In this document: in pieces, positions 476 through 45,530 of the stretch | How the letters are laid out: each line of letters starts with the position of its first letter | Position numbering within the stretch: the first letter of the stretch is position 1 | Source of the DNA: Spirochaetia bacterium | GTDB taxonomy: Bacteria; Spirochaetota; Spirochaetia; DSM-2461 | Reading direction: 5' to 3' | Assembly: GCA_963666985.2 (NCBI GenBank) | Contig: CAXXIA010000002.1 | Location: 1,888,001 to 1,952,000, forward strand | Length of the DNA stretch: 64,000 bases | The notes under the pieces: generated by a model | Database searches by the model: none | The model's input: the letters and a program-made list of their open reading frames with translations, nothing else | What the model was told of the DNA's origin: nothing | Program-made: the position numbers and the translations under genes

Positions 476-678
476 AACAGCTGTTGATGCGCTCCGGCCG
501 CTAAAAGTGTTTAGCGGCCTTCGGGGCTTCGCCCAAATTTCGCTTTGTCATGGCTCTTGCAGATGCGTTTCTGAAAGTGGTGTGATAAGCTGAAGAGCGA
601 ACGTGCTTTCTGCTAAAAGCAAGAGCGCATGCCAACCGGCTGCGCCGGCCGCGAAACTTCGCATACCAGCGGGCCGTT
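476..678 (+). repeat. attC-like repeat 1 (203 bp)
   Basis: AACAGCTGTTGATGCG...CGCATACCAGCGGGCCGTT. Confidence 0.9.
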
Positions 679-739
679 TTGTGCACTTATTCAGAAATTC
701 GGTGAATGAAAACCATTCTTATTTGTAACGTCTTTTCAA

Positions 740-1603
740 TCAAAGATGTAAGGCCTTCTTCCAATCAGTGTTATTAAAAAGCGATACATGCAAGATATAG
801 AAGAGAACACCAACCGTGCCGAGAATAAGGGCTGTAACTGAGGACCATCCGATTTTTCCAGATATGGCGTAGTCCAGGGCCGCAAGCATCACTGCTAGGT
901 CGAAGCAAAGGAATCCCGCTAGGTTTATTCCCTTACGCCGTACTCGATCCAAGTAGAAGAAGAAAAAGGATACAGGGAGCGTTGCTGCCGCTGCTATAAA
1001 GGACCAATCCGGCCAGCCAGTGGCAATAATGTCCACTACAATGGTAAGTCCTGTGCCCAGGATTAGGAGAGCGACAACGAGTCTAAGCCAAGGCGGTCGG
1101 CGAAAGACAATGTAGGCAAGTGCCGACTCTAGGGCAAGGAACACTGCACTATAATAAGGTAGCAGGTATCGTCCAAGGCGCTGGCCGGGCAAAGCTCTTG
1201 CTATTAGTAAAAGTGAAATAGATCCCACAAGGATAAGGGCCACTGTCACTGCAATAAAAGGGTGATGGCCAAGGCGCATGAATACCAGGCTTAGAAGTGC
1301 AGCACCCACCACCGGGATCGCTACAAAAAACGACCAGCTTATATGACCGTTCCGTATGAGGTCTACGCCTAAGGTATAAGCTATGGGGAACAATCCAAGG
1401 AAGCATACCATCAGTGTCGCAAAGAGCCGTTTTTGCCGTTGGTCCAGTGTCTTATACATCCGTTGTGGTGGAATTACATCTTCAGGATATTCCGCAGGTT
1501 CCGGTGGGCCATTCCGAACTTCTCCGGGAATAGCCGTCCCACAGAGAGGACAGGCCTCTAAGCGCATTTCTATTTCAACTCCACATCGTGGGCAGTATGG
1601 CAT
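740..1603 (-). CDS. Zinc-ribbon N-terminal multi-pass membrane protein (DUF6320-like)
   Basis: MPYCPRCG...CPLCG zinc ribbon followed by several hydrophobic helices; 4 bp downstream of the acyltransferase gene. Confidence 0.7.
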   Translation of the reverse strand: MPYCPRCGVEIEMRLEACPLCGTAIPGEVRNGPPEPAEYPEDVIPPQRMYKTLDQRQKRLFATLMVCFLGLFPIAYTLGVDLIRNGHISWSFFVAIPVVGAALLSLVFMRLGHHPFIAVTVALILVGSISLLLIARALPGQRLGRYLLPYYSAVFLALESALAYIVFRRPPWLRLVVALLILGTGLTIVVDIIATGWPDWSFIAAAATLPVSFFFFYLDRVRRKGINLAGFLCFDLAVMLAALDYAISGKIGWSSVTALILGTVGVLFYILHVSLFNNTDWKKALHL

Positions 1604-1607
1604 CCGA

Positions 1608-2888
1608 TTACCTCCTGTTGGTCCTGATAGCGACGGGAATCCCGTTGCGTCTCATACCGGCGAAAAAACGACGTTCGATGTCCGTCTCTGCATAATGGCT
1701 GCACAAAAACACCCGACTGATCCCCCCGTAAGCAATAGCTGCTGCATTGATTTGCTGTGGAATAGATGGCGGTATAAATTGGTAGGCTTGTACAAAACGG
1801 GCCATATCGTTGGGGATGGTAATACGACCTAAATTTGAAAAGCTCACGGTAAAACTCCGGCTTCCAAAGGCCGAATAAAAGAATTTTAAGAGGGGGTCTT
1901 TGAGGAATAGCGGGAGAATGCGGATAAGGGAATTTTTTTCTCCGGTGACATTGCGACTGATCTGCCGGGCAATATATCGACCGTCAATTTCCAACCGCAT
2001 GAAATGATGCACCTTAGATACGATATCTTCGAAGTTAAAGTCTCCCAATCTTGGGTCGATTCCCGGTTCCACCGTGAGGGAGAAATTGCGCATGGTGGAT
2101 GATTTGAAGATCCGTCGAAGGTTTACGGGGACACTCACTCTGATTGGCCGAGGTTTCCAGTTTTTCGCTTTCATTTCTTCATAACAGGCATTCACTAAGG
2201 CTGCTGTAAGATACTCACCGACTGTAACTTTGTATTTATCGGCTGCTTGTTTAAGGATTTCTTCCTTGATGAGGCCTTCTGTGACGAAGAAAGTTGGAGG
2301 TCTGATCGGCTTCCCGGGTATCTTTAAAGCACGTTGTGCCATATGGGCGGGAGGCACATGCGGGTCATGATGAACCAAATAGCCATCTTCGTATTCCTCG
2401 ATACTCATAGGCGATCTGGCGTCTATAGGTAGAGTGCCTACGGCTATCGCTTCACCTTGAATGCGAAGATATTCAGCTACCAGGCCATTGAGAAAATTCA
2501 ATGCACCCGTACCGTCGGTGACAAAATGTCCTGCCTCCACAGCTACTCGATTACGATATGCAATAACCCTCAATGGCAACACGCCCGGACTCTTGAATGG
2601 AACATAGAGGCAGGGATAGCGGCTTTCGGGCTCAACATGGAGTTCTGTATCAGTTGGCTCCAGATAATACCAGAAGAGTCCTCGACGAAGGTGAACATGA
2701 AAATATGGGCATCGGGACATCATAGCCCGGCAAGCTTGTTCTAGGGGTTCTACGGATATCGGTTGGTTCAGAACAGCCGCCAATCTAAAGACCGTAGGCC
2801 TCCACGGAGAGAGTTGAGAAGCAAAGATTTTAGCAGCATTGTCTAGCCGGGACTCAAACTGGTCGGGCCCGGCCCCGGTGGCGGGCAT
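1608..2888 (-). CDS. Alcohol acetyltransferase / condensation-domain acyltransferase
   Basis: HFVTDG (HxxxDG) motif, VPVNLR and FSNLG motifs. Confidence 0.75.
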   Translation of the reverse strand: MPATGAGPDQFESRLDNAAKIFASQLSPWRPTVFRLAAVLNQPISVEPLEQACRAMMSRCPYFHVHLRRGLFWYYLEPTDTELHVEPESRYPCLYVPFKSPGVLPLRVIAYRNRVAVEAGHFVTDGTGALNFLNGLVAEYLRIQGEAIAVGTLPIDARSPMSIEEYEDGYLVHHDPHVPPAHMAQRALKIPGKPIRPPTFFVTEGLIKEEILKQAADKYKVTVGEYLTAALVNACYEEMKAKNWKPRPIRVSVPVNLRRIFKSSTMRNFSLTVEPGIDPRLGDFNFEDIVSKVHHFMRLEIDGRYIARQISRNVTGEKNSLIRILPLFLKDPLLKFFYSAFGSRSFTVSFSNLGRITIPNDMARFVQAYQFIPPSIPQQINAAAIAYGGISRVFLCSHYAETDIERRFFAGMRRNGIPVAIRTNRR

Positions 2889-3062
2889 CCTTTAATCATA
2901 ACAGAAAAGATGAGCTTCGACACTGGAGTGAAATATCAGGTTTATGTGATGCGAGCCGTTGTATTGTCACCCCAATTGGGACAGGCTTTTCAGAAATTGA
3001 GATACAAGAGATGGCATGAATCAAAATGAGTGATTAGCGGCAATACAGGAATAAGTGCACAA

Positions 3063-3269
3063 AACAGCTGTTGATGCGCTCCGGCCGCTAAAAGTGTTTA
3101 GCGGCCTCCGGGGCTCCGCCCAAATTTCGTTTTGGCCATGGCTCTTGCAGATGCAGTTCCAGAAGTGATGTGATACAGTCAAAGGCGAACAAGGTATTGC
3201 TGTAAAAGAGCAAGAGCGCATGCCAACCGGCTATGCCGGACGCGAAACTTCGCATACCAGCGGACCGTT
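3063..3269 (+). repeat. attC-like repeat 2 (207 bp)
   Basis: Same conserved ends as repeat 1. Confidence 0.9.
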
Positions 3270-4296: not shown

Positions 4297-4490
4297 TGCG
4301 CTCCGGCGTCAACTAGCGTTGCCGCCTCCGGGCCTACGGCCAAATTTCGCTTTGGACATGGCTCTTGCAGATGCAGACTCAGAAGTGATGTGATACAGTC
4401 AAAGGCGAACAAAGCATTGCTGAAGCCGTTGCAAGAGCGCATGCCAACCGGCTTTGCCGGACGCGAAACTTCGCATAACAGCAGAACGTT
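4285..4490 (+). repeat. attC-like repeat 3 (206 bp)
   Basis: Conserved ends; near-identical to repeat 28. Confidence 0.9.
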
Positions 4491-4503
4491 AAACAAACTT
4501 TCG

Positions 4504-4690
4504 ATGAAAAGAATTATTTCTATTTTTATATCGATTACATTATCTCTTCTTGGATCATGTAATACAAACCCCAACTATGTATTGTCTTCACAAATGAATG
4601 GATTACATCCGATTGAATTAATATACTTTGATTCAATTTCAGAAGAGAAATTAGGCTCTTTTCCAATTGATAGAGGATACTATGCTGAAT
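4504..4690 (+). pseudogene. 5' fragment of CHASE2-like lipoprotein gene, truncated by IS3
   Basis: Matches the start of 7469..8332 up to the IS end at 4691. Confidence 0.85.
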
Positions 4691-4718
4691 TGGAATTCCC
4701 AGACTTCTATAGACACCT

Positions 4719-5537
4719 CTAGCTTGCAATAGAACCCTTTTCAAATTCAACCGGAGAGATCCCGCCAAGATGCTTGTGGCGACGCTTCCGGTTGTAAAAT
4801 GCTTCAATATAATCGAACACATCAGACCGTGCTTCATCCCTTGTTCGATATGTCTTCCGGCGAATCCGTTCCTTCTTCAAACTACCAAAGAATGATTCCA
4901 TGGCTGCATTGTCCCAGCAGTTTCCACGACGGCTCATACTTCTCTTCAGTCCGTTGTCACGACAGAATCTAATCCAGTCACCGCTGTCAAATTGGCCGCC
5001 CTGATCGGAATGGATAAGGACTTTGTTTTTCGGGCGTCTCTTCCAAACAGCTGTCAGTAAGGCCTGGATAACCAGATCACGATGAAGCGTGTTCTGCATG
5101 GACCAGCCGATGATTCTCCTGGAATAAAGATCCATGACAACTGCGAGATACAGCCAACCTTCATGAGTTCGAATATAGGTAATATCCGTTGTCCACGCAG
5201 TATCGGGTTCTTCTACATTAAAGTCCTGCTGGAGATGGTTCGGGGCAGCCTGGGACGGTTTTCCATACTTGAATCGACGCATCTTGAAGCCGACCATCGC
5301 CCTGATACCATGCTCTCGCATGATTCTGGCTACTCGATGGACGCTGCAGGATTCTCCGTCTTCCATCAAATCCTCATGGATTCGTGGACTTCCGTAGACC
5401 TGATCGCTTTCTTCGTAGAAGTGGCGAATCTTCTTCAACAACCGAATGTCTTCAATCTTTCTCTCTGATTGAGGTTTTCTCAACCATGCATAGAATCCGC
5501 TTCGATTGACATCGAGAACCCGGCACATAGTCTTCAC
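4719..5537 (-). CDS. IS3 transposase OrfB (DDE)
   Basis: WTTDITY, HSDQG, GNCWDNAAMESFF motifs. Confidence 0.95.
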   Translation of the reverse strand: MKTMCRVLDVNRSGFYAWLRKPQSERKIEDIRLLKKIRHFYEESDQVYGSPRIHEDLMEDGESCSVHRVARIMREHGIRAMVGFKMRRFKYGKPSQAAPNHLQQDFNVEEPDTAWTTDITYIRTHEGWLYLAVVMDLYSRRIIGWSMQNTLHRDLVIQALLTAVWKRRPKNKVLIHSDQGGQFDSGDWIRFCRDNGLKRSMSRRGNCWDNAAMESFFGSLKKERIRRKTYRTRDEARSDVFDYIEAFYNRKRRHKHLGGISPVEFEKGSIAS

Positions 5538-5575
5538 TCTGAATTCAGCCCTGTAGTTTTTGATGAAGGCATATC

Positions 5576-5872
5576 TTACTCGGACTGACTCGCGAAGTAT
5601 GCCGCGGCTTTTTTTAAGATATCTCGCTCTTCCTGCACCCGCCGCAGCTCTGCTTTCAGCCTGGCATTCTCGACTTCAAGCTCCTTATTTGCTTTTGCCG
5701 ATTCTGGTGCTTTTGGATTTCGAGAATCGGCCTTCAGCCACTTATAGAGGCTATGGGTTGAGACTCCTATACGCTCAGAGACTTCCTTGATGGAGTAGCC
5801 CCGCTCAACAACCTGGCCGACTGCTTCTGCCTTGAATTCGTCCGAATATCGCGGACTTCCCATGATGTACAC
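5576..5872 (-). CDS. IS3 transposase OrfA (HTH)
   Basis: YSDEFKAEAV...LKKAAAYF; A7G slippery site near its end. Confidence 0.92.
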   Translation of the reverse strand: MYIMGSPRYSDEFKAEAVGQVVERGYSIKEVSERIGVSTHSLYKWLKADSRNPKAPESAKANKELEVENARLKAELRRVQEERDILKKAAAYFASQSE

Positions 5873-5922
5873 TCCTTCCTCATTTTGAGTTTAGCAGTGT
5901 CTATCAAAAGCTGGGAATTCCA

Positions 5923-6637
5923 CTACAATGCGCGCTGGTACGATGCCACGCTTGGTCGATTCGTTACTGAAGACCCTGCTCGGGATGGCCTCAATTGGTT
6001 CATCTACGTCAGTAATAATCCGCTCAGGTGGGTGGATCCGACGGGTTTATTCGAGCTGGCGGCAGAAGACGGTAAAGCAATAATCAACGTAGAAGAAGAC
6101 GATACTTTGTGGGATATCATTGCCAAGCAAAACCCGGATTCTTCAGATGCAGAAATACTCGGAAAGATCGATGAAATCGCCGAGACTAATGATCTAGAGG
6201 ATCCAGACAAGATTTATCCTGGTCAAAAGCTTGAGGCTCCTGACTCCGTTGTACCGGACATTACAGACGACTTGATGGATCGAATGGAGACGAACGCTGA
6301 AGACAAGAATACCAGAAATCCTTTTTATTTCAGGGAAAAAGTCGAAGCTGGCGGAGATTGGGATCTCAAGGCTCAGGATGATACCGTGTATGATACGACT
6401 CCATTGCAATATGCTGAGTACCTTTTTAATGGTGAGATCGTTCGTTACGACGCACCCGGCAATATTCACTATGGTTATGTTGGCCGGTCTACATGGTATG
6501 GATCGCGTCGAAGACTCCTGAGCCAGGCTGGTGCAGCTCAAATCGAAGACAATCCCAACGGCGGCTGGGAAGGGGATGATCCCTCTGACGCAATGTACAT
6601 CATTATGGGAATGGATTTATATGACAATCAGGAGTAG
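5923..6637 (+). pseudogene. RHS core C-terminal fragment with LysM and Ntox44-like toxin domain; 5' part lost at the IS3 junction
   Basis: YNARWYD..LGRF..EDP, Y..NNP..WVDPTG RHS signature; DTLWDI...DPDKIYPGQKL LysM; WDLK...GNIHYGYVG. Confidence 0.8.
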
Positions 6638-7013
6638 ATACGTCTTCCTTACCCGTATAGGGCTGGTCGGATGTTGTGTCGCCATATTTCTTTATAGCTG
6701 CGATAGCGCAGATCGCTTTGCCAAAATGGAAATTGTTAATGAGATATCTCTAGAAAACGGTGAAAAGAAAGCCGTTATGTACGTATTGGATTACGGTGCT
6801 ACGGCTTCAAGTCGGTTGAACGTGTCCATTTTGCCATCTGAGGCCAAAATAAGGGCAGCAAAAGGTGTCGTTTACTCCGCTCTTTTTACGGATCATCTAG
6901 ATTACGATTTGCTTAAGATAGATGAACAAACTATTAAAGTCGTACATGAATATCGTCCCCAGGATCCATTTGTGAGCTACGATGAGTATGAAGGTATCAA
7001 GATCAAGTATTGA
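6621..7013 (+). CDS. Putative immunity lipoprotein for the RHS toxin
   Basis: Overlaps the toxin stop; signal peptide with FLYSC lipobox-like motif. Confidence 0.55.
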   Translation: MTIRSRYVFLTRIGLVGCCVAIFLYSCDSADRFAKMEIVNEISLENGEKKAVMYVLDYGATASSRLNVSILPSEAKIRAAKGVVYSALFTDHLDYDLLKIDEQTIKVVHEYRPQDPFVSYDEYEGIKIKY

Positions 7014-7250
7014 CTTGTCGTCTTAGTGGTCGAAAAATCAACAGGTCCGCCCCTCCGCCATCGTGGCTTCGGGGCTGCACAGAATACTCGTTATCGTCAG
7101 CCGATATCCGTGTCAGCGGTCCGCTTCGCCTTTGGCTCCGCCCAATAACGGATACTCTGTGCACCTGCCAGAAATTAATCAGGGCCATCTGAAATACATC
7201 GTGTATTTCAGATGTATTTTTTTGGGGTTCTTTTCTGGATTTTATCGTTA

Positions 7251-7455
7251 AACAGCTGTTGATGCGCTCCGGCCGCTAAAAGTGTTTAGCGGCCTTCGGG
7301 GCTTCGCCCAAATTTCGCTTTGGCGATGGTTCTTGCAGATGCGTTCCTGAGAGTTGTGTGATAGGCTCAAATGCGAACAGGCTTTCTGCTGAAGTGCAAG
7401 AACGCATGCCAACCGGCTTCGCCGGCCGCGAAACTTCGCATACCAGCGGACCGTT
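7251..7455 (+). repeat. attC-like repeat 4 (205 bp)
   Basis: Conserved ends. Confidence 0.9.
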
Positions 7456-8349: not shown

Positions 8350-8549
8350 AACAGCTGTTGATGCGCTCCGGCCGCTAAAAGTGTTTAGCAGCCTTCGGGG
8401 CTTCGCCCAAATTTGCCTCTGTCATAGATTTTGCGAAAGGCTAGGGCTGTGGTAAAATGTGTCGCAGTTAGCGGTTGAGGTTGTGAAGAATCGCAAAATC
8501 TCCGCCAGTCGCTTTGCGAACGGCAAACTTCGCATACCAGCGGAACGTT
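8350..8549 (+). repeat. attC-like repeat 5 (200 bp)
   Basis: Conserved ends; AGATTTTGCG/CGCAAAATCT inner arm subtype. Confidence 0.9.
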
Positions 8550-8789
8550 TGATGACAGAATTAATTTAGGAAATAGTTTTTCTCATTTTTTAAAAAAGAG
8601 AAGGCAATTCCCCTCACAAATATCAATTTAAATTCGTGAAAAGCTCTGAAAGTTTTTGAGAAAAAATCAAAGTGTTCCAGTTGTCGAGGTTGTTTCTCCT
8701 GATATGAGTCTTGTTCAGTTGAATAAGAACAAGAGAGCCTTTTCACGGTGTTTGATCTTTATGGGCTTTGCTTAATTCCGTCATCAAAC
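8547..8789. other. ORF-less cassette, copy 1 of 4
   Basis: Ends GTTTGATGACAGAATTAA / TTAATTCCGTCATCAAAC; no convincing ORF. Confidence 0.8.
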
Positions 8790-14159: not shown

Positions 14160-14363
14160 AACAGCTGTTGATGCGCTCCGGCGTCAACTGGCGTTGCCGC
14201 CTCCGGGGCTTCGCCCAAATTTCGCTTTGGCCATGGCTCTTGCAGATGCAGCTCGGTAAGTGATGTGATACCATCAAAGGCGAACATGGTATTGCTGAAA
14301 CAAGCAAGAGCACATGCCAACCGGCTTCGCCGGCCGCGAAACTTCGCATACCAGCGGGCCGTT
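14160..14363 (+). repeat. attC-like repeat 10 (204 bp)
   Basis: Conserved ends. Confidence 0.9.
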
Positions 14364-14436
14364 TAGTGAAATAATCGAAATTGTATTCTAGCGCCTCGGC
14401 ATCCGTGCCTCGGCGATTAGTAATAGGAGGTTCCCA

Positions 14437-14847
14437 GTGGCAGATCCAAGAGCGTTCATTAGTTTTGATTTTGATCATAACGAGACAGAAAAGAATCTTT
14501 TCGTTGGACAATCAAAAAACTCAAAAACACCATTCAGCATAGAAGATTGGTCGTCAAAATCATCCCTACCACAAGACCAATGGCAAAAACTAATTAAGGA
14601 TAAGATTAACAGATGCAATATGGTAATAGTTCTTGTTGGTAGGTATATGGCATCAGCAACAGGTGTGGGTAAAGAAATTAAGTTTGCTAAAGATTTAGAT
14701 GTCCCAGTCTTTGGTGTTTATGTTGATGGTGCAAATACTTCTAGCAATTTGCCTGGTGGACTGCCTCGCAATCGGACAATAGTCTGGAACTGGCCCAATA
14801 TCGCAGCAGCTGTCAATCAAATGATGGGTGAAGGGAAGAACCGATGA
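14437..14847 (+). CDS. thsB: TIR-domain protein (ThsB/DUF1863-like)
   Basis: RAFISFDFD...IVLVG....GVGKEI TIR motifs; GGAGG RBS before GTG start. Confidence 0.8.
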   Translation: MADPRAFISFDFDHNETEKNLFVGQSKNSKTPFSIEDWSSKSSLPQDQWQKLIKDKINRCNMVIVLVGRYMASATGVGKEIKFAKDLDVPVFGVYVDGANTSSNLPGGLPRNRTIVWNWPNIAAAVNQMMGEGKNR

Positions 14848-15809
14848 GGAAAGCGTTGTGTGTCGGCATTAACGATTATGGCAAAAACTCGTTAAAAGGA
14901 TGTATCGCCGATGCGTCTGCAATAGCTACGCTCCTAGAAACGCACGGAGATGGTTCTCCAAACTTTGATATTCGCCTAGAAACGGATGTAGCAAAGAAAG
15001 CATCTTTGAAGGGTATGATTTCAGAACTCTTTTCTGGCGATTGTGAAACAGCATTGTTCTACTTTTCTGGTCATGGTTTTCTAAATGAGCTTGGTGGCTA
15101 CATTGTCACGCCTGATTATTCAAAATACGACGAGGGCGTTTCGATGGACGATATTTTGAAGTATGCCAATGATTCTAAGATCAAGGATAAAATTGTAATT
15201 CTAGATTGCTGTCATTCGGGAGCAATGGGTTCTCCTGCAATTACCGGTAATACCTCACTGCTTAATGAAGGTGTTTCGATTCTTACTGCTAGTCGTGACG
15301 ACGAATCTTCGATAGAGATTAATGGTCATGGTGTATTTACGAATTTGCTCCTTGATGCTCTTCAAGGTGGAGCTGGCGATTTGAGAGGTCATATTTCACC
15401 AGGTGGCATTTATGCTTTCGTGGATCAGGCTCTTGGAGCATGGGATCAACGACCAGTTTTTAAAACAAATGTATCGCGTTTTACTTCACTACGGAAAGTC
15501 ATACCTCAAGTACCTGCTGCTATACTGCGAAAACTAGTTGATTTCTTTCCCAATCCACAGGATGAGTTCAAACTCGATCCGTCATTTGAAGATACAAATT
15601 CGACAGACATCAAGCATAAGTTAATAGAGCCATATGCAAATCCTGATCACGTTGAGGTTTTTAAGAAGTTGCAGAGCCTACAAAGTGTAGGCCTGGTGGT
15701 TCCTGTAGATGCCGACTATATGTATTTTGCTGCTATGGAATCTAAATCATGTAAACTAACATCACTTGGTTCCCATTATTGGCGTCTGGTTAAAGACAAG
15801 AGAATTTAA
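14844..15809 (+). CDS. Caspase-like (peptidase C14) effector; with upstream TIR resembles type IV Thoeris
   Basis: RKALCVGINDY, FYFSGHG, ILDCCHSG His/Cys dyad; ATGA overlap with the TIR gene. Confidence 0.88.
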   Translation: MRKALCVGINDYGKNSLKGCIADASAIATLLETHGDGSPNFDIRLETDVAKKASLKGMISELFSGDCETALFYFSGHGFLNELGGYIVTPDYSKYDEGVSMDDILKYANDSKIKDKIVILDCCHSGAMGSPAITGNTSLLNEGVSILTASRDDESSIEINGHGVFTNLLLDALQGGAGDLRGHISPGGIYAFVDQALGAWDQRPVFKTNVSRFTSLRKVIPQVPAAILRKLVDFFPNPQDEFKLDPSFEDTNSTDIKHKLIEPYANPDHVEVFKKLQSLQSVGLVVPVDADYMYFAAMESKSCKLTSLGSHYWRLVKDKRI

Positions 15810-15927
15810 AGTTTTCTCTTCATTCCTTGATTTTGGTGTATGAAAAGATGAAAACTAAAACGTCAGAAGCACATCGTGTGCTTCTGACGGATATTTTTGT
15901 TTTTTTTAAATATCGATTACTTCACTA

Positions 15928-16192
15928 AACAGCTGTTGATGCGCGGCGGCCGCTAAAGGTGTTTAGCGGCCTTGGGCCGAGCGATGGGAAACTATGAGTT
16001 TTATGATTTCTGTAAACGGGAAGAATCAAACTGGTTCGGCTCGGCCAAATTTCGTTTTGGCCATGGTTCTTGCAGATGCGTTCCTGGAAGTTGTGTGATA
16101 GGCTCAAATGCAAACAGGCTTTCTGTTAAAGAGCAAGAACGCATGCCAACCGGCTTCGCCGGACACGAAACTTCGCATACCAGCGGGCCGTT
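15928..16192 (+). repeat. attC-like repeat 11 (265 bp, long subtype)
   Basis: Conserved ends plus extra arm. Confidence 0.9.
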
Positions 16193-17034
16193 AAAGGAAA
16201 TTCGGACGACGGAATAAAATGGGTCTCTTTTTTGAAGTGTTTTTCTATGGCAGGCCTTTCCCCTTCATTTGAACAAGTAACAGAAACAGAATCCCTTTGA
16301 GTGGTCAGATCTTTTTAACAGGCCTTCCTTCTCTTTGAACAAAACAGGTCGTTTTGATACGGCTTTCTCCTCACCCCCCTGCGCCTTTGAGATCATCTTC
16401 AAGAAAAAAACCAAAAGCATCGGAATAAAACTCGCTTCGGGATCAGAAGCACTTAGTGATAAGGCGGTCGGTTCGGGAGAACATGTGTCGTGAAGGTTTA
16501 TGGTTTTTAACGATAATGGGAATCGCTCATGAGAAAATCCTTATCCGTTGATGGTTATCGCTTCGGGAAATGAGGCGCTTCCGGTTTGATCGGTTCGCGA
16601 GAAAAGGGGTGGTAGCCTGAGAAGAATGAAGGGATGGAGATGAGAAGAATGGAGATTGTTTTCTCCGTGGTTTTGCCTTTGAGAATAAGGCTGAATGCTT
16701 CGGGGAATACCGGTGTAGAAGGAGAAGACGAACATTCGGATTTATAGAATCAGTCCTGATTGAAGAATGGCGGGAAAGGCGAATTGCATCGGATGATGGC
16801 CTGAGTAAAGTGATGAGGCGATGAAAGGGAGAATCGGGGTTAGTATGAGAGAATGGATAGCCATTTCGATGAATGAGTAGAAAGCGGAAGAGGGAAGTCT
16901 GTAAAAGGATGAATGAAGAAAAGATGAGAAGGAGAAGGGCAAGAGGAATCGAAACAAAGGGTCCGGTAAAACGGCGAGGAGGGGTGAGGAGAAGGAGAGG
17001 TTTTTATAGATGCGTCGTCCGAACTTCCTTTAAC
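16190..17034. other. Purine-skewed, apparently non-coding cassette, copy 1
   Basis: Ends GTTAAAGGAAATTCGGACGACG / CGTCGTCCGAACTTCCTTTAAC; only short low-complexity ORFs. Confidence 0.7.
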
Positions 17035-17296
17035 AGCTGTTGATGCGCGTCGGCCGCTAAAAGTGTTTAGCGGCCTTGGGCCGAGCGATGATAGTCATAT
17101 GAGAGTAGTTGGTTTTCGAAAAGAGAAAATCAGCATGAATCGGCTCGGCCAAATTTCGCTTTGGCAATGGTTCTTGCAGATGCGTTTCTGAAAGTTGTGT
17201 GATAGGCTCAAATAAGAACAGGCTTTCTGCTGAAGTGCAAGAACACATGCCAACCGGCTGCGCCGGCCGCGAAACTTCGCATACCAGCGGACCGTT
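17032..17296 (+). repeat. attC-like repeat 12 (265 bp, long subtype)
   Basis: Conserved ends plus extra arm. Confidence 0.9.
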
Positions 17297-17537
17297 TGAT
17301 GACAGAATTAATTTAGGAAATAGTTTTTCTCATTTTTTTAAAAAAGAGGAGGCAATTCCCCGCACAAATATCAATTTAAATTCGTGAAAAGCTCTGAAAG
17401 TTTTTGAGAAAAAATCAAAGTGTTCCATTTGTCGTGGTTGATTCTCCTGATATGAGTCTTCTTCAGTTGAATACGAACAAGAGAGCCTTTTCACGGTGTT
17501 TGATCTTTATGGGCTTTGCTTAATTCCGTCATCAAAC
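17294..17537. other. ORF-less cassette, copy 2 of 4
   Basis: Near-identical to 8547..8789. Confidence 0.8.
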
Positions 17538-17796
17538 AGCTGTTGATACGCTCCGGCCGCTAAATCTCTTTAGCTGCCTTCGGGCCGAGAAGATGGTTAT
17601 TAGTTGAGTGTTATGATATTTGCAAAGAGGAAATGGGATTGAAACGGCTCGGCCAAATTTCGCTTTGGCTGCTTTTGTTGAGATGTTTTGGTTCGTAATC
17701 TGTGGTAATGTTAAAAGCGAGCGGAGGTTCTGGTAATTTCGTGGGGCAGCCAACCGGCTCCGCCGGACGCGAAACTTCGTATACCAGCGGGCCGTT
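17535..17796 (+). repeat. attC-like repeat 13 (262 bp)
   Basis: Near-identical to repeat 6. Confidence 0.9.
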
Positions 17797-18038
17797 TGAT
17801 GACAGAATTAATTTAGGAAATAGTTTTTCTCATTTTTTTAAAAAAGAGGAGGCAATTCCCCGCACAAATATCAATTTAAATTCGTGAAAAGCTCTGAAAG
17901 TTTTTGAGAAAAAATCAAAGTGTTCCATTTGTCGTGGTTGATTCTCCTGATATGAGTCTTCTTCAGTTGAATACGAACAAGAGAGCCTTTTCACGGTGTT
18001 TGATCTTTAAGGGGCTTTGCTTAATTCCGTCATCAAAC
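17794..18038. other. ORF-less cassette, copy 3 of 4
   Basis: Tandem near-identical copy. Confidence 0.8.
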
Positions 18039-18297
18039 AGCTGTTGATACGCTCCGGCCGCTAAATCTCTTTAGCGGCCTTCGGGCCGAGAAGATGGTTG
18101 TTAGTTGAGTGTTATGAGATTTGCCAAGAGGAAATGAGATTGAAACGGCTCGGCCAAATTTCGCTTTGGCTGTTTTTGTTGAGATGTTTTGGTTCGTAAT
18201 CTGTGGTAATGTTAAAAGCGAGCGGAGGTTCTGGTAGTTTCGTGGGGCAGCCAACCGGCTCCGCCGGACGCGAAACTTCGTATACCAGCGGGCCGTT
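18036..18297 (+). repeat. attC-like repeat 14 (262 bp)
   Basis: Close variant of repeat 6. Confidence 0.9.
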
Positions 18298-18983: not shown

Positions 18984-19002
18984 ATTTTCTGATACTGCAC
19001 CA

Positions 19003-26243: not shown

Positions 26244-26293
26244 ATCGTAAAAGGAATTAGGATAGGTAATACTACTCAGACAAAATGGCTTAT

Positions 26294-28825: not shown

Positions 28826-29309
28826 GGGCAGTGTCCTTTTCGATGGGTGTATGGTTACTCCATCTTAGGGATACTCGCCCGTTTTTATTGGCTCAAAACC
28901 GGAAATCTTATTCCGGTGTTTTCAGGAAATTTATCACCGGTGCTGACAGTTGATACGCTCCGGCCGCTAAATCTCTTTAGCGGCCTTCGGGCCGAGAAGA
29001 TGGTTATTAGTTGAGTGTTATGATATTTGCCAAGAGGAAATGAGATTGAAACGGCTCGGCCAAATTTCGCTTTGGCTGCTTTTGTTGAGATGTCTTGGTT
29101 CGTAATCTGTGGTAATGTTAAAAGCGAGCGGAGGTTCTGGTAATACCGTGGGGCAGCCAACCGGCTCCGCCGGACGCGAAACTTCGTATACCAGCAGACC
29201 GTTTTACGAAAAAATCCAAAGGCCTTTTACCGTGGCGGCGTCCGTGCCGCCACGAATAGTTTCATGTAAGGAAATAGGGTTATTTGAAGTTAAGAAGATT
29301 CGTAAAAAT

Positions 29310-32103: not shown

Positions 32104-32233
32104 AACAGATGTTATGAGGTTCCGGCTGGCTATCGCCAACCTTCACCCAAATTGGCTTTTGTCATGTTGTTTGCGTTGGCAAACAACACGCCAATCCTTC
32201 GGAACAGCCAACTTCTCATAACATCGGGCCGTT
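32104..32233 (+). repeat. attC-like repeat 21, short variant family B (130 bp)
   Basis: AACAGATGTTATGAG...CTCATAACATCGGGCCGTT. Confidence 0.85.
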
Positions 32234-32302
32234 ATTCGAAAAAATCTTTAACGGTAGAAAATCAATAACAGAAAGTAAGAATGCAATCGTATTACACAAG
32301 GC

Positions 32303-33040
32303 TTAAGCGAGAATCCCAGGAATGATTAATATAAAAACAAGAAGATTTCCTATACCGTGGATTATTATCCCAATCCAAGTATTTTGATGCTTCTGTACTA
32401 AATATGGAACTGCTAAGGATACTGGAATCAAAGAGATAAACGACCAAGGCATGAACATATGTACTAATAAATTCCACAATATCCCATTTACAAGCCATGC
32501 CCACTTTCCAAATACTTTTTCCTGTAGTGGTAACGCATATCCTCTCCAAAGGAGTTCTTCCGCCCCGATATTGACTATTAACCATCCCAGCCAAAAGCCG
32601 ACAATCCACCATTGGTCAGCTAAAGGAACCCCGAAAAAAGTTGTAAGTCCATCTGCGATTTGCAGTCCTGGATGGAAAAGTTCTGGTGTGAATTCTGGGA
32701 CATGAAAAAAAGAATAGTTCATTAAGAAATGTCGAGTTGGCGCAAGACCCAGCTCAAGAGTCTGAACGCCAAGAAAACCAATAATAATCCAGAGCCAAGT
32801 TTTACCCGATATCTTTCCAAATCTAAATCTGCTTATGAAATTTATATTTCTTTGTTTGTTGGATACAAAACATGTCAAGATAATAAACAATATCAATAAA
32901 ATCGGAATCCATAGTGATAGGGAATAGCTGATGATTAATGGCCATCCTATTTTTGTAAGGTAGGGAACCAGAACTCTTGCGCCTAGAAACATAAGAATTC
33001 CAGGAATTCCGAAGAACACAAGAGACTGAATCAGATTCAT
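32303..33040 (-). CDS. CPBP (Abi/CAAX) family intramembrane metalloprotease
   Basis: AEELLWRGY, LVH, IIHGIGN motifs; start uncertain. Confidence 0.85.
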   Translation of the reverse strand: MNLIQSLVFFGIPGILMFLGARVLVPYLTKIGWPLIISYSLSLWIPILLILFIILTCFVSNKQRNINFISRFRFGKISGKTWLWIIIGFLGVQTLELGLAPTRHFLMNYSFFHVPEFTPELFHPGLQIADGLTTFFGVPLADQWWIVGFWLGWLIVNIGAEELLWRGYALPLQEKVFGKWAWLVNGILWNLLVHMFMPWSFISLIPVSLAVPYLVQKHQNTWIGIIIHGIGNLLVFILIIPGILA

Positions 33041-33197
33041 TTTTCTTGAATTACAAAAAATAGAAAAGATGTTCATAAGAAGATGGTTACATGATTTAGC
33101 GGTAGAACTCAAGTTTTTAAATATTTTGCATGTGGTATATTTTTAATGTGACATAAGTAAAAGTTGGTTTTGAATAGATTTAACGATTTCTTCGAAT

Positions 33198-33395
33198 AAC
33201 AGCTGTTGATGCGCTCCGGCTGAAAATGAGATTTTCAGCCTTCGGGGCTTCGCCCAAATTTGCCTCTGTCATAGATTTTGCGAAAGGCCCGTGGCTATGA
33301 TACGATATCTTCAGTAAAAGGTTAGTGGTGTTATGATCGCAAAATCTCCGCCAGTCGCTTCGCGAGCGGCAAACTTCGCATACCAGCGGGCCGTT
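33198..33395 (+). repeat. attC-like repeat 22 (198 bp)
   Basis: Conserved ends. Confidence 0.9.
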
Positions 33396-35633: not shown

Positions 35634-35838
35634 AACAGCTGTTGATGCGCTCCGGCCGCTAAAGGTGTTTAGCGGCCTGCGGGGCTCCGCCCAAATTTCG
35701 CTTTGGCCATGGTTCTTGCAGATGCGTTTGTGAAAGTGGTGTGATAAGTTGAAGAGCGTACGGGCTTTCTTTTAAAGTGCAAGAACGCATGCCAACCGGC
35801 TTCGCCGGACGCGAAACTTCGCATACCAGCGGGCCGTT
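35634..35838 (+). repeat. attC-like repeat 24 (205 bp)
   Basis: Conserved ends. Confidence 0.9.
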
Positions 35839-36554
35839 AGGTGAAATCAAAAGATTCATATTTTTAGGATTAACTATAAATGACATCTGAACACAAAGAA
35901 TTTATAAAGCGATCTATAAAAGTATTGCAGCATGATGAACGAATAATGGGTCTTGCTGTTGCCGGTTCTTTCATTACTAATGCAATGGATGAATTTTCTG
36001 ATATCGATTTTGTTATTGCCGTTGATTCAAAATATTACAATGAAATCTTAGATAAGAGAATTGAAATCGCTAAGAGTTTAGGACATTTGCTTTCTGCATT
36101 TACGGGAGAACATGTTGGAGAACCCCGATTGCTTATCTGCCTGTATAACAATCCCTTGATTCATGTTGATTTAAAATTCGTTTCGATTGATGAGATTGCA
36201 TATAGAGTTGAAGATTTCAAAGTATTGTGGGAACGTGACAATTGTATATCCGATAAACTTAAAGAAGAATCAGCACAATTTCCTAATCCAGATCTTCAAT
36301 GGATTGAAGATAGATTTTGGATTTGGATCCATTATGGAGCAGGAAAGATTGGTCGCGGTGAGATTTTTGAGACGATCGAATTTATTTCTTATTTGCGTCA
36401 GAACGTGATAGGCCCGTTAATCTTGATGAAGAAGGGAAAACGCCCCCAAGGTGTACGGAAGATTGAATTCGATGCGCCAGAATATTTGGAACGATTGAAG
36501 TCAACAATAGCGATTCATGAAAAGTGAACCACACCGGGATTCCCGGAGGCTGTT

Positions 36555-37466
36555 TTAGTTGAGTCCGGCAGCTACTGCCGAACATTCTTCCTGTTCATAA
36601 TACATCGATTCAAACTTCGCCGGGGGGATATCTCCAAGCGGCTCCATGATTCGGCGGTTGTTGTACCAGTCCACCCAGTCCAGGGTTTCCAATTCAACCT
36701 GTTCTATTCTCTGCCATGAGCTCCTCCGGTGGATGACTTCGGCTTTGTAGAGACCGTTGATAGTCTCAGCCATTGCGTTATCGTACGAGTCTCCTTTGCT
36801 CCCAACCGAAGGCTCGATACCGGCCTCTGTCAATCGATCCGAATATCGAAACGAAAGATACTGCCTTCCACGATCACTGTGATGAATCAGACCGTCGACT
36901 ACTTCCCTGGCCCAAAGCGCCTGATTGAGCGCATCAAGAGTAAAGTCGGTTTTCATCGACCGGCTAGCTCGCCAACCGACGATCATCCGGGAGAAGACAT
37001 CAATGATGAAGGCAACATAGACGAAGCCCTGCCAGGTGGAAACGTAGGTGAAATCCGCAACCCAAAGCCGATTCGGCTTGGAAGCTGTGAAATCTCTGTT
37101 AACCAGATCCTCGGGTCTTTCATCTTTCGGTGACGGGAAGGTGGTCTTGGTTCCCTTGCCCCGAATGACGCCTCTGAGACCCATAGAACGCATAAGACGT
37201 TCGACGGTACACCTGGCTACATGGAGATGCTTCTCATTTCTAAGAACCTTCCAGACTTTCCTGGCGCCGTAGACTCTACGGTTCTCATCCCATATCTCCT
37301 GAATCTCATTTTTAAGAAACCGGTCTCGACGTGTTCGATCAGGTTCGAGTTCAGGATCAGCTTCTCTTGCTTTTTGTAGATGATAGGTCGACGGAGCAAT
37401 CGGCAGTGATTTGCAGATAGGCTCGACTCCATATTCTTCCCGGTTCTCATTGATAAAACCGACCAT
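36555..37466 (-). CDS. IS3 transposase OrfB
   Basis: LWVADFTYV, HHSDRG, GDSYDNAMAETING. Confidence 0.95.
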   Translation of the reverse strand: MVGFINENREEYGVEPICKSLPIAPSTYHLQKAREADPELEPDRTRRDRFLKNEIQEIWDENRRVYGARKVWKVLRNEKHLHVARCTVERLMRSMGLRGVIRGKGTKTTFPSPKDERPEDLVNRDFTASKPNRLWVADFTYVSTWQGFVYVAFIIDVFSRMIVGWRASRSMKTDFTLDALNQALWAREVVDGLIHHSDRGRQYLSFRYSDRLTEAGIEPSVGSKGDSYDNAMAETINGLYKAEVIHRRSSWQRIEQVELETLDWVDWYNNRRIMEPLGDIPPAKFESMYYEQEECSAVAAGLN

Positions 37467-37786
37467 CAGTTCTTTCGGCGGTCGAGCTCCGCCTGGGCAA
37501 AATACGCTGAGGCCTTTCGAAGAATTTCGTTGGCAGTACGAAGTTCTCGATTCTCCTTTTCCAGCTCTTTAAGACGCTTACGCTCTTCACTGGTTAGACC
37601 ATCCCGCTGCCCTTCATCGATTTCTGCCTGCCGAACCCATTTCCGGAGTGTTTCGGGTGTACAGCCGATCTTAGCGGATATTGAACAAATCGCCGACCAC
37701 TGAGATTCGCTGTCCTTCTGCTTCTCAAACACCATCCGGACAGATTGTTCCCGGACTTCCTTGGGGTACCTTGTTTGCTTTCCCAT
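37466..37786 (-). CDS. IS3 transposase OrfA
   Basis: RYPKEVRE...IGCTPETLRKWV...FAQAELDR. Confidence 0.93.
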   Translation of the reverse strand: MGKQTRYPKEVREQSVRMVFEKQKDSESQWSAICSISAKIGCTPETLRKWVRQAEIDEGQRDGLTSEERKRLKELEKENRELRTANEILRKASAYFAQAELDRRKN

Positions 37787-38017
37787 GACACAATCCTCTC
37801 AAGTAATTGTGCCTCCGGTAAAGCCGGGGTGGTTCAAAGAGATCTTGTTATGAAGTTTTGAAGAATATTGTTTTGCTTTATAGGGAACTACGAGAAGAAC
37901 TCCAAAATCTAGATTTCAATTACAATTCAGAGACAGAAGAAGTAGCCATGGCTTATTTGGATGATATCTATAAGAGGTGTGTATAAGAGAATGAGAAAGT
38001 ATTGCTTGATTTCACCT

Positions 38018-38225
38018 AACAGCTGTTGATGCGCTCCGGCCGCTAAAGGTGTTTAGCGGCCTTCGGGGCTTCGCCCAAATTTCGTTTTGGCATGGCATCT
38101 TGCAGATGTGTTTTCAAAAGTGATGTGATAAGCTAAAAAAACAAACAGGCTTTCTGCTAAAAGCAAGAGCGCATGCCAACCGGCTTTCAGCCGGACACGA
38201 AACATTCGCATAACAGCGGGCCGTT
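38018..38225 (+). repeat. attC-like repeat 25 (208 bp)
   Basis: Conserved ends. Confidence 0.9.
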
Positions 38226-38865: not shown

Positions 38866-39013
38866 AACAGATGTTATGAGGTTCCGGCTGGCTGACGCCA
38901 CCCTTCACCCAAATTAGCCTTTTGAAAAACTTCGGAGAAATTGCAAAGCAATTTTCCTCAGCTTTTCAAGCCCACAAGGGGCTCAGGCTAACTTCTCATA
39001 ACATCGGAACGTT
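38866..39013 (+). repeat. attC-like repeat 26, short variant family B (148 bp)
   Basis: AACAGATGTTATGAG...CTCATAACATCGGAACGTT. Confidence 0.85.
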
Positions 39014-39035
39014 AAACGCCACTCGAACTTTGTCG

Positions 39036-39300
39036 TTGGAGAGACCAGGACATCCTTTACATTTTAGGTACAGGACATCGTTTACACTAAACAAGCTTGA
39101 ACGAAGCATTTGAGCCCATCAACAGAAGGGGTAAAGGCATAGTTTTTCCAGTCAATTTCTCCTAATCTCGAACAGTAAGAAAAATTGCTAGTGTGGTGAA
39201 CTTGAAATAGAAATCACCTTATAAATAGCCCTTCAAAAGGGGCTCATAACCTGTACTGCTATAATTAGGCAAAATTGATTTATGAATCAAATATGATTGT
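39036..39300 (-). mobile_element. Degenerate end remnant of an IS481-like element (right boundary approximate)
   Basis: GACCAGGACATCCTTTACATTTTAGGT.CAGGACATCGTTTACACTAAACAAG matches 45558-45610 and continues into diverged transposase 3' end. Confidence 0.7.
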
Positions 39301-39306
39301 ACGACA

Positions 39307-39993
39307 TTAGGAAATAGGCGTCTTGGAATGATCGGCCACTTTTTCAGCTGTCATGTCAAGAACTCCATAAATTGCCTCTTGCCGATATTCGTCGGTCAAT
39401 ATTTGTTCTTTTTCTTTTGCCTCTTTACCAAAATTCATGAATGGGTATTTCAACTGAACTGTATATGTCTCATAAAGGCTTGCTACCGATTGCCTATTGT
39501 GAACGTCTACTATGTTGCCTCTCGATTTCCCAAACATATTTTCAGGTGTATTATTTCCAATCTTGTTCTGTTCCCAGTATTCTTGAATATATGCTTCACA
39601 AAGGATTACGTAATCAGCAGACAACTTTGAACCTATATCAACCACAATGGCCAATTCATTTTCTTCTAATTGATATGAATTTTCTACATCCGGCATATCT
39701 TCAGTAATGTATATTGGATACTCGTTAATAGTAGACTTAAGTTCTGCATAGCTAATAATTTCTATTAAGGTTGCTTCTGCAATTTTCTCCGCTAGGTATT
39801 TTGCGTTTCTCTCATGATTGCTGTCGTCAAGTGGTGAAACAACAAGCAATCTTTTGCCTGTGAAGTCAATTTCGTCTAAGAATTTCGTTTGATTTCTTAG
39901 TCGACCAACAGCCCCAAGTGTTGAGCAACCAACGAAAATTACAGGTATAATAGCAAAAAAAAGAACAAAGCGCTTTTTCATTTTAGTCTCCAT
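39307..39993 (-). CDS. Hypothetical lipoprotein
   Basis: MKKRFVLFFAIIPVIFVGC signal/lipobox. Confidence 0.7.
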   Translation of the reverse strand: METKMKKRFVLFFAIIPVIFVGCSTLGAVGRLRNQTKFLDEIDFTGKRLLVVSPLDDSNHERNAKYLAEKIAEATLIEIISYAELKSTINEYPIYITEDMPDVENSYQLEENELAIVVDIGSKLSADYVILCEAYIQEYWEQNKIGNNTPENMFGKSRGNIVDVHNRQSVASLYETYTVQLKYPFMNFGKEAKEKEQILTDEYRQEAIYGVLDMTAEKVADHSKTPIS

Positions 39994-40096
39994 AAGATAT
40001 CGAAGATAATAGATATAAACTTATTAAAAACGAATTCATTTGAATGTCAACCACATTTTTCTGTTGGGATAATTTATAGAACTTCGAGCGGCGTTT

Positions 40097-40294
40097 AACA
40101 GCTGTTGATGCGCTCCGGCTGATAACGAGGTTATCAGCCTCCGGGCTCCGCCAAATTCGTCTTTGTCAGAGATTTTGCGTGAGTCTAACGTGTATGGTAA
40201 AATGCTTTTCAGTAAACGGTTGAGTTTGTTCTGAGAGGCAAAATCTCCGCCAACCGCTACGAGGACGACGAACTTCGCATACCAGCGGACCGTT
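40097..40294 (+). repeat. attC-like repeat 27 (198 bp)
   Basis: Conserved ends. Confidence 0.9.
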
Positions 40295-44056: not shown

Positions 44057-44116
44057 ACATGTGATTAGTTTGAATGGCCAAGACGGCGAATCATTTTGAA
44101 TAATAGAAATGCACAA

Positions 44117-44313
44117 AACAGCTGTTGATGCGCTTCGGCGGTAACGAGGTTACCGCCTCCGGGGCTTCGCCCAAATTTGCCTCTGTCACAGATTTTGCAT
44201 ATGTCTACCGCTGTGGTAATATAAATTGTAGTTATCGTTTGAGGTTGTGAAGAATCGCAAAATCTTCGCCAGTCGCTTCGCGAATGGCAAACTTCGCATA
44301 CCAGCAGAACGTT
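44117..44313 (+). repeat. attC-like repeat 29 (197 bp)
   Basis: Conserved ends. Confidence 0.9.
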
Positions 44314-44484
44314 TTACGAAAAACCTATAGAAACTTAATGTATAAAAATACCGTCATATACGTGAAATGAAAATTCATTGTCTTATCGGTCAATAACGCA
44401 TTAGATAACAAGTCATAGTAAGCATACTGTTAGTAAATACACATATAAGATTACTGTAAAAATAGAATAGGCAACTATCACCAT

Positions 44485-45198
44485 CTATATGTTTATTTTT
44501 GTTTCTAATATGGTATGGTCACTATAATTTTTAACCTTCCCATAATTCCAAGAAAATGTTTTTTCAACTGCAATTGATAGATCCTTGCTGACAAATATAT
44601 GATCATCTTGATAGTGATTTTCCTCTGACATATTGGCACCAAAAAAAGTCTGTGAATAAACGGGACAACACTCGTGAAAATGTAAACCAATTTTGTCAAA
44701 AATGTCACTAAAGAATCCATTTACCATAACCGTGTCAGCGTTGAAGTCTCCACCAATGATGAACCTACTTTTCGAACTAAGAACCGTTGCATTAAAAATG
44801 CTCTCAATGTGGCTTCTTATTGTATAGATACCGTCAGGAGATGTATTTGTATGTAGACTGCATAAGGTTATAGAAGTGCCATTATTGCTTTCGAATTCAA
44901 CGAAAACTTGTTTCCCTTTGTGTTTTTCAGAATCGATATATTTATCTGTAACATCCGAAATTGAGCCCGTTTTCAATATATTTTCACTAAAATATAAGCA
45001 TGTACCCCATTTTGGTAGCTCAGTTGTTTTGCAAGTCTCACTTTCATGAAAAATCGCCATTTCAGTAAATCTTTCAGGGACTACGGTTTCCTGAAGAAAT
45101 GCGACATCTGGACATACAGATGATGTTAAATAATCCCAAGCCTGGTCATTAGTTCCATTCTGTTGCCAATAGTTCATATTCCATGTGACAAGTTTCAT
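44485..45198 (-). CDS. EEP family nuclease/phosphatase
   Basis: MKLVTWN, FLQET, GGDFN, DHIFVS, SDH. Confidence 0.85.
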   Translation of the reverse strand: MKLVTWNMNYWQQNGTNDQAWDYLTSSVCPDVAFLQETVVPERFTEMAIFHESETCKTTELPKWGTCLYFSENILKTGSISDVTDKYIDSEKHKGKQVFVEFESNNGTSITLCSLHTNTSPDGIYTIRSHIESIFNATVLSSKSRFIIGGDFNADTVMVNGFFSDIFDKIGLHFHECCPVYSQTFFGANMSEENHYQDDHIFVSKDLSIAVEKTFSWNYGKVKNYSDHTILETKINI

Positions 45199-45325
45199 TA
45201 AATACTCCTCTTAAGGAGTTTATCATTGCTCATAGAGATTACGAGAATAAATGAGATGATTGAAGAGAAAGGATAAAGATTAAAATCTTTATTAGGGCAG
45301 ATGCGAGTCAATTAGTTTTTCGTAA

Positions 45326-45530
45326 AACAGCTGTTGATGCGCTCCGGCCGCTAAAAGTGTTTATCGGCCTTCGGGGCTCCGCCCAAATTTCGCTTTGGCC
45401 ATGGTTCTTGCAGATGCGTTCCTGGAAGTTGTGTGATAGGCTCAAATGCGAACAGGTTTTCCGTTGAAGTGCAAGAACGCATGCCAACCGGCTACGCCGG
45501 CCGCGAAACTTCGCATACCAGCGGAACGTT
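45326..45530 (+). repeat. attC-like repeat 30 (205 bp)
   Basis: Conserved ends. Confidence 0.9.

Follow-up and report, generated by a model that had tools for sequence, protein, structure and literature searches.

How might a recombinase choose the right strand of a folded cassette site when it lacks the segment with which integron integrases read unpaired bases? The question is raised by a cassette array in a Spirochaetia bacterium (G000), on the contig here called C2. Part of this array lies in the 64,000-nucleotide (nt) stretch C2:1888001-1952000, which we call the window. The whole array runs for about 157 kb, from C2:1778054 to 1935716 (window positions -109946 to 47716), and holds 88 cassettes with 64 distinct pairs of ends, counting the junction beside the recombinase gene. 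The cassettes have long inverted ends that are specific to each cassette, and position 11 of these ends often carries a one-sided mismatch, an A.C pair on the plus strand that becomes a G.T wobble on the minus strand. We lean towards the view that the ends are the outer R-arm of a folded, integron-like site, which a recombinase without the IntI-specific segment would likely read as at least 14 base pairs (bp) of DNA resembling a normal duplex.

The pairing of the ends was measured by comparing, for each cassette, the first 30 bases, counted from the G of GTT, with the last 30 in reverse complement, counted from the C of AAC. A stem of at least 14 bp with no more than one mismatch is found in 75 of the 88 cassettes (53 of the 64 distinct end pairs), and 83 of 88 have such a stem if two mismatches are allowed; the longest extends to 29 bp. 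Non-cognate combinations of starts and ends reach 14 bp with up to one mismatch in 5 of 4016 cases, and the sequences that flank a single attC copy within the array do so in 3 of 87, which we read as tandem copies of one cassette. Over 14 positions the mean match is 13.0 for cognate ends and 7.9 for array neighbours, the latter matching mainly at positions 1-3 and 8-10. Thus, the pairing links the two ends of a cassette across its cargo, not the two flanks of an attC copy, and belongs to the cassette rather than to its place in the array. A long stem between the ends of the same cassette can form only once that cassette is circular. When folded in silico, the circular junction is more stable than the same site in the array in 80 of 86 cases (mean difference -11.6 kcal/mol). 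These results support the proposal of the earlier note that the excised circle forms a much longer outer stem, and the six end pairs that it quoted all reproduce (Table 1). Among the 30 whole cassettes in the window, 25 have stems of at least 14 bp with up to one mismatch and 28 with up to two. Two, 4488-7253 and 45528-47716, have non-cognate ends.

Stems of this length exceed what is known of canonical R boxes. The baseline of 7 bp used in the earlier note was too low: passages of Bouvier 2009 (PMC2727003) describe R pairing that in most cassettes runs to 9-11 consecutive nt, and Ghaly 2021 (PMC8352920) also reports attC pairing that runs past the 7-nt R boxes. In the present array the uninterrupted run is 10 in stems with the wobble and 14-21 in the others, and a 14-bp stem with up to two mismatches, found in 83 of 88 cassettes, lies beyond that range. 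For comparison within the phylum, an integrase above the TIGR02249 cut-off was present in 29 of 301 sampled genomes, and the integrase flanks of six of these genomes were inspected. Four gave parsable arrays, with 32 cassettes in all; the flanks in G249 and G297 showed no usable array by an 11-mer screen and were left out. Perfect stems measure 5-9 bp in G323 (14 cassettes), 5-8 bp in G279 (four), 4-9 bp in G234 (eight) and 11-12 bp in G303 (six), so that the overall range is 4-12 bp and none of the 32 cassettes reaches 14 bp. The possibility, allowed for in the earlier note, that equally long outer complementarity is common in known integrons thus finds no echo in these comparators or in the published 9-11 nt. 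These four sedentary integrons resemble the present array in being chromosomal, with homogeneous attC sites and AAC/GTT ends, but their attC sites are about 60-70 nt long and lack the position-11 mark, and their integrases, unlike that of G000, match TIGR02249 over its full length and above its cut-off.

The anatomy of the arm was derived from the 59 distinct stems, where A/C denotes A in the left arm and C in the right arm on the plus strand. The cassette boundaries are AAC and GTT throughout, with GTT at positions 1-3 in all 59. Every position from 1 to 14 except 11 pairs in 55-59 of the 59 stems. At positions 4-7 and 12-14 the sequence varies from cassette to cassette while pairing is kept in 58 or 59, and position 10 pairs in 55. 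Position 8 is nearly invariant: the right arm, read as its reverse complement, has G in all 59, and so does the left arm in 57, the other two having A, which is the same A/G type as at position 11. Beyond position 14 the number of stems that are paired falls, to 50, 42, 30 and 27 at positions 15, 16, 17 and 18, and by position 20 about 20 of the 59 are still paired. A fixed minimum length over a variable sequence is as expected for a protein footprint.

At position 11 itself, 33 of the 59 stems are A/C and none has the reverse arrangement (binomial p = 2.3e-10, the cassettes not being fully independent). These 33 stems represent 23 distinct contexts at positions 4-10. The remaining 26 have a Watson-Crick pair, with 9 A, 8 C, 7 T and 2 G. 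A right-arm G in reverse-complement reading faces A in 33 of 35 instances. Stems with the position-11 mismatch average 18.8 bp against 16.7 bp for those without, and no clear association was seen between the wobble and the length class of attC. Full tabulation of the end pairs thus confirms the bias suspected from a dozen cassettes: all 12 starts named in the earlier note carry A on the left and C on the right, and seven more in the window (10360, 17294, 17794, 20675, 26501, 29201 and 40292) bring the in-window count to 19 of 30. The mark is always present in a 242-245-bp cassette without any open reading frame (ORF) of at least 50 codons, of which the array has at least nine copies; the long attC class of about 255 nt follows most of them.

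Ends of this kind could in principle be a by-product of cassette making, for example of copy-back synthesis at the attachment of attC, and have no later role. We know of no established account of how cassettes arise, and the nearly uniform attC interior with cassette-specific arms would fit arms taken from local sequence at the birth of the cassette. However, neutral decay would scatter mismatches along the stem, and mismatches at positions 4-14 other than 11 amount to 9 of 590 cells. The sharp 14-bp minimum is held across 59 different sequences, and the one-sided mismatch at a single position is kept across genera (see below), which makes a pure by-product very improbable.

The enzyme beside the array is not a typical integron integrase. 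Immediately left of the array, the minus strand encodes a tyrosine recombinase of 277 residues (L001:1204-2037). Its gene is divergent from the cassettes, and the first cassette starts at C2:1778054, 88 bp upstream of the recombinase start codon. The opening bases of this cassette are identical to those of the cassette at window position 25135, but the sequence preceding them is not attC, as in an attI-type junction. The recombinase scores 224.6 bits with NCBIfam NF040815 (cut-off 220) and 220 bits with TIGR02249, below the cut-off of 265, with model positions 178-239 unmatched. Its best match of solved structure, VchIntIA (2a3v, E = 7e-46), aligns in two stretches, between which 22 residues of the query (179-200) stand for 65 residues of the 2a3v chain (181-245). 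The missing stretch is the site of the IntI-specific insertion, and the recombinase lacks the additional domain with its I2 helix. In this the locus differs from the classical integron that the earlier note had assumed. No other protein of the genome, which is 93% complete, scores above the TIGR02249 cut-off. Close relatives of the recombinase (60-97% identical, 273-290 residues) are few and mostly on short contigs; a search of genome contigs with the single recombinase protein gave 195 pattern matches and no confirmed relative.

In its other features the locus is a mixture of the integron-like and the unusual. A divergent tyrosine recombinase gene with an attI-type junction, and imperfectly palindromic sites with AAC...GTT ends, are as in integrons, and the boundaries place the probable crossover between G and TT; in the attC at 476-678 this would be between G676 and T677. 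The attC-like repeats lie on the plus strand, measure about 190-270 nt, with left end AACAGCTGTTGATGCG and right end CGCATACCAGCGGnCCGTT, and 83 copies of 191-269 nt fall outside the 57-142 nt given as the attC range in passages of Bouvier 2009 (PMC2727003). Rfam gave no match on these repeats. Canonical attC R boxes, as in VCR with VchIntIA (2a3v) or attCaadA7 with IntI1, share with the present sites the AAC/GTT triplets, the TT... at the cassette start brought about by crossover, and R halves of one cassette that are paired only in the circle, and their substrate is the bottom strand. Here, in contrast, the stems of 14 bp or more in 83 of the 88 cassettes, the one-sided A.C/G.T at base 11, the near-invariant G at position 8, the long attC and the insertion-less recombinase set the system apart. 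According to Messier and Roy 2001, as cited in part of PMC8352920, the additional domain is necessary for integrase activity.

A second point of comparison is the CTXphi attP(+) site. In the sections of Escudero 2016 (PMC4792948) on this subject, the I2 helix of IntI reads extrahelical bases, whereas the CTXphi site, used by XerCD without I2, mimics double-stranded DNA. As in CTXphi, a Xer-like recombinase without an I2-type domain is predicted here, by analogy, to act on a folded single strand. The phage borrows the XerCD of its host and integrates at dif, whereas the present system has a dedicated recombinase, an attI junction and 88 cassettes. The predicted consensus fold also has a 4-nt versus 1-nt spacer and single-base bulges beside the arm, like attC, and the site would therefore not be a plain duplex mimic. 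By these likenesses the present sites would sit between IntI/attC and XerCD/CTXphi. The arms of Xer and Cre sites are 11-13 bp, comparable to the arm length here.

The same mark recurs in three related arrays. The array of G022, from another genus of the same family, has a recombinase 42% identical to that of G000, attC sites of about 135 nt, stems of 14-26 bp and A/C at position 11 in 8 of 8 cassettes. In G017 (recombinase 43% identical, attC of the same family as in G022) 4 of 5 are A/C and the fifth is A/T. A metagenome scan by alignment A1 with generic tyrosine-recombinase motifs yielded 80 loci with proteins 33-45% identical to the query; a 12-mer screen found repeats at two of them, L091 and L128, and L128 (recombinase 36% identical, attC of about 150 nt) supplied position-11 data, with A/C in 3 of 4 cassettes. 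In its fourth cassette the left arm has A and the right arm, in reverse complement, has C rather than G, a transversion. Together the cognate cassettes of the three arrays are A/C in 15 of 17, in the reverse arrangement (G left, T right) in none, and non-Watson-Crick in all 17. The attC sequences of these arrays differ from those of G000, and the polarity of the mark relative to the recombinase gene is alike in all three. Other stem mismatches in the related arrays are mostly of the A/G or C/T type and also give G.T on the minus strand. Short recombinases of G033, G019 and G015, and the second copy in G022, have no repeat array within 20 kb, so not every member of the group heads an array.

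The left A deserves separate consideration. It occupies position 11 in 42 of the 59 stems here and in all 17 cassettes of the relatives, and at the attI junctions of G000, G022, G017 and L128 the first cassette has it in each case. The left end might be under a dual constraint: once its cassette is first in the array, it would serve also as the double-stranded outer arm of attI, where A would be favoured, while the right end would be constrained in the folded site alone and would favour C. On this view the wobble is a compromise and not a signal. The scheme, which we think has little chance of being the whole story, does not account for the retention of C in the right arm, where T would pair with the A. 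Some preference of the right arm in the folded form must still be assumed, and the scheme then merges with recognition of a folded R-arm.

The assignment of strands draws on gene order, folding and replication. The recombinase divergent from the array and the attI junction form the canonical layout, and hence the plus strand is the top strand. With DNA parameters, in-silico circular junctions were folded for 86 sites on both strands. In 79 of these sites the minus strand gives the more stable fold (mean -57.2 versus -52.9 kcal/mol, mean difference 4.35), in agreement with the bottom-strand fold that the earlier note had envisaged. A consensus fold from 62 distinct sequences reaches -38.5 on the minus strand and -27.6 on the plus strand, and in it the outer arm is followed by the spacer, then by a short stem with bulges and by inner hairpins that branch. 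The gene dnaA (C2:1708613-1709947) and the cumulative GC-skew minimum (about 1.68-1.76 Mb) both lie to the left of the array; forks should therefore cross it from left to right, with the minus strand as leading-strand template. Passages of Loot 2017 (PMC5371416) give the bottom strand as leading-strand template in 25 of 30 sedentary integrons, and in large ones. All three lines are consistent with the minus strand being the bottom strand by analogy with integrons. The G.T wobble is indeed confined to this strand, as the earlier note had it, since the mismatch is one-sided in 33:0 stems here and 15:0 in the relatives. The fold energies, the one-sided mismatch and the replication orientation give indirect support to the folded bottom strand as the sole strand that would be recombined.

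The opposite assignment can be argued as well. The signal could be the mismatch or a flipped base at position 11 of the top strand, much like the unpaired bases of a classical attC, with the plus strand recombined. All 17 relative cassettes are non-Watson-Crick at position 11 with A on the left, two of them (the A/T and the transversion A/C) mismatch on both strands, and the energy gained by the bottom-strand wobble is small. A G.T pair on the top strand would not be disruptive, and this would also explain the lack of reverse cases. Nevertheless, whole-site folding favours the minus strand, the gene order relative to recombinase and attI corresponds to the canonical top and bottom assignment, the replication orientation fits a minus bottom strand for a large array, and 48 of the 50 non-Watson-Crick cases are of the type that gives a minus-strand wobble. 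Recombination of the top strand is on these grounds unlikely.

If the ends are the outer R-arm of a folded site, the following mechanism would account for their features. The minus (bottom) strand would fold, and a single recombinase monomer would occupy some 11-13 bp of the arm, starting at the AAC/GTT cleavage triplet and reaching outward. The G.T wobble lies about one helical turn from this triplet, close to the outer limit of the predicted footprint; there it would be tolerated or recognised, while the A.C mismatch would break the same arm on the top strand and so aid strand choice without an I2 helix. By analogy with the integron and CTXphi systems, the position-11 mark likely helps the insertion-less enzyme to recognise the right folded strand. 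Array neighbours pair at about 8 of 14 positions, and the full arm would therefore exist only in free circles, which predicts that insertion is favoured over excision and that the array is stable.

Several observations weigh against this interpretation. In 26 of the 59 stems position 11 has a normal pair, so the mark is not obligatory in this genome, and the two relative cassettes with a mismatch on both strands would fit an unpaired base equally well. In the outer arm alone, the bottom strand of mismatch stems is better by a mean of 1.04 kcal/mol (29 of 33), compared with a strand difference of 0.05 kcal/mol where position 11 is normally paired. About 1 kcal/mol from the wobble makes stability a weak discriminator of strands; if the wobble does discriminate, it is likely to act through geometry or protein contact. 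Of the distinct cassettes, 38 have their longest ORF on the plus strand, 25 have it on the minus strand and one has none, and this co-orientation is weaker than in classical sedentary integrons. The recombinase of L128 (L128:9971-10846) has one in-frame stop near residue 41, which could reflect a pseudogene, a sequencing error or recoding, and it falls elsewhere in the tree described below, on a long branch. How the enzyme binds, where it cleaves and which strand it uses are deduced by analogy with related systems; the protein-binding or directionality role suggested in the earlier note is likewise conjectural. Finally, transition mismatches outside positions 8 and 11 are balanced between the strands (about 7 versus 6). 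A general bottom-strand wobble bias was ruled out on this last count; the consensus folds of both strands are rich in G.T pairs (133 top, 182 bottom), which also counts against such a bias.

More tentatively, the arrays may form a distinct integron class, built on an IntI-like recombinase whose I2 segment was lost or never acquired and which uses instead a long duplex R-arm with a G.T wobble. Strand choice would then have been solved a second time and independently, perhaps in a form akin to the Xer-to-IntI intermediate on which part of Escudero 2016 (PMC4792948) speculates. Either loss or primary absence of the insertion would fit a tree of 32 rows, a small sample with an assumed root. It comprises seven canonical integrases (IntI) of the phylum, 13 short recombinases, nine more distant short proteins and three Xer-like proteins of G000. 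The short recombinases of G000, G022 and G017 form one clade (99/96), to which the IntI clade (100/100) is sister with weak support (85/79). A search of one full-text library returned no relevant paper on wobble pairs in the attC sites of integrons.

The additional domain has been used to define integron integrases, yet the recombinases on which this array of 88 cassettes and its relatives are based have no such domain, and the sites of these recombinases carry a conserved, strand-specific mark. Standard integron screens require an integrase profile with the additional domain and accept attC sites of up to about 200 nt; they would probably call such arrays integrase-less or miss them. Strand choice by tyrosine recombinases on folded DNA thereby gains a second natural test case, in which position 11 and the length of the arm are concrete, mutable features for recombination assays.

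Table 1. Repeats, cassette arms and recurrent small cassettes of the array, in window positions (negative values lie to the left of the window)
Feature	Position	Strand	Remarks
Part of array in window	1-47843	+	Holds 30 whole cassettes; an attC-like repeat follows each
Example attC, main class of about 200 nt	476-678	+	AAC 476-478, GTT 676-678
Left arm, cassette 676-3065	676-692	+	17/17 with 3049-3065
Right arm, cassette 676-3065	3049-3065	+	
Left arm, 243-bp mini-cassette 8547-8789	8547-8564	+	A8557 is position 11
Right arm, cassette 8547-8789	8772-8789	+	C8779 opposite A8557; 17/18
Left arm, cassette 14361-15930	14361-14378	+	A14371 is position 11
Right arm, cassette 14361-15930	15913-15930	+	C15920 is position 11; 17/18
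Left arm, cassette 16190-17034	16190-16211	+	21/22; A at 16200
Right arm, cassette 16190-17034	17013-17034	+	C at 17024
Left arm, cassette 18295-19005	18295-18316	+	20/22
Right arm, cassette 18295-19005	18984-19005	+	
Left arm, cassette 23589-24940	23589-23604	+	16/16; C-G at position 11
Right arm, cassette 23589-24940	24925-24940	+	
ORF-less cassette copies	8547-8789, 17294-17537, 17794-18038, 26501-26742		Five further copies upstream in the array
Split attC copy	26740-29203		2.26-kb insertion right after the first 14 bases
Variant short attC, AACAGATGTTATGAG...CTCATAACATCGG	32104-32233	+	Then cassette 32231-33200, A/C at position 11
Variant attC, second copy	38866-39013	+	Then cassette 39011-40099, A/C at position 11
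Variant attC, third copy	-57056 to -56930		Found by profile search and second look
Last attC copy	47714-47843	+	Cut off after about 130 nt; end of array

Across the genome the motifs of the repeat ends are confined to one block of C2, from 1,779,213 to about 1,935,970, in a single orientation. A profile search and a second look added to the array a divergent class of attC and the last, incomplete copy. The three copies of the divergent class are about 127-148 nt long, and the A/C cassettes starting at 32231 and 39011 follow two of them. Relative to the main class, the inner stem of this variant has GATG/CATC for GCTG/CAGC and ATGAG/CTCAT for ATGCG/CGCAT. At the level of sequence these compensatory changes are direct covariation support for the predicted inner stem of attC. 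One further copy is split by an insertion that contains a 263-residue frame (window 26970-27263) with a weak AAA+ match to DnaA, presumably an IstB-like helper. This frame has eight equal-scoring copies in the genome, and for this reason the insertion is probably an insertion sequence.

Cargo of mobile origin is also found within cassettes. In the cassette 45528-47716 an ORF for an IS481-type transposase (45612-46802, minus strand; Pfam rve, rve_3 and LZ_Tnp_IS481) lies near the start, and the non-cognate ends of this cassette suggest that two cassettes have probably been fused or rearranged. The cassette 35836-38020 contains an Rfam ALIL pseudoknot (RF01497, 100.6 bits, 37392-37508, minus strand), a frameshift element of the IS3 family. 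The first cassette at the attI junction (C2:1778054-1779215, window -109946 to -108785) is a duplicate of the cassette 25135-26296, and the copy at attI encodes a 304-residue ORF whose translation, as we judge it, resembles the endonuclease/exonuclease/phosphatase family; the clear match to the Pfam model of that family (PF03372) is in a different ORF, 44485-45198. Past the end of the array (47844-64000) lie a phage-type integrase gene (47960-49159), a terminase-like ORF (50748-51659) and a GC-rich stretch, with a GC content of 0.48-0.56 compared with about 0.29-0.48 in the array. A PtsI-like gene in this stretch (51704-53449) is 70-84% identical to proteins named from Thiogranum and Acidobacteria, its best named matches being gammaproteobacterial and acidobacterial. 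This region has the appearance of a foreign island that was inserted where the array ends.

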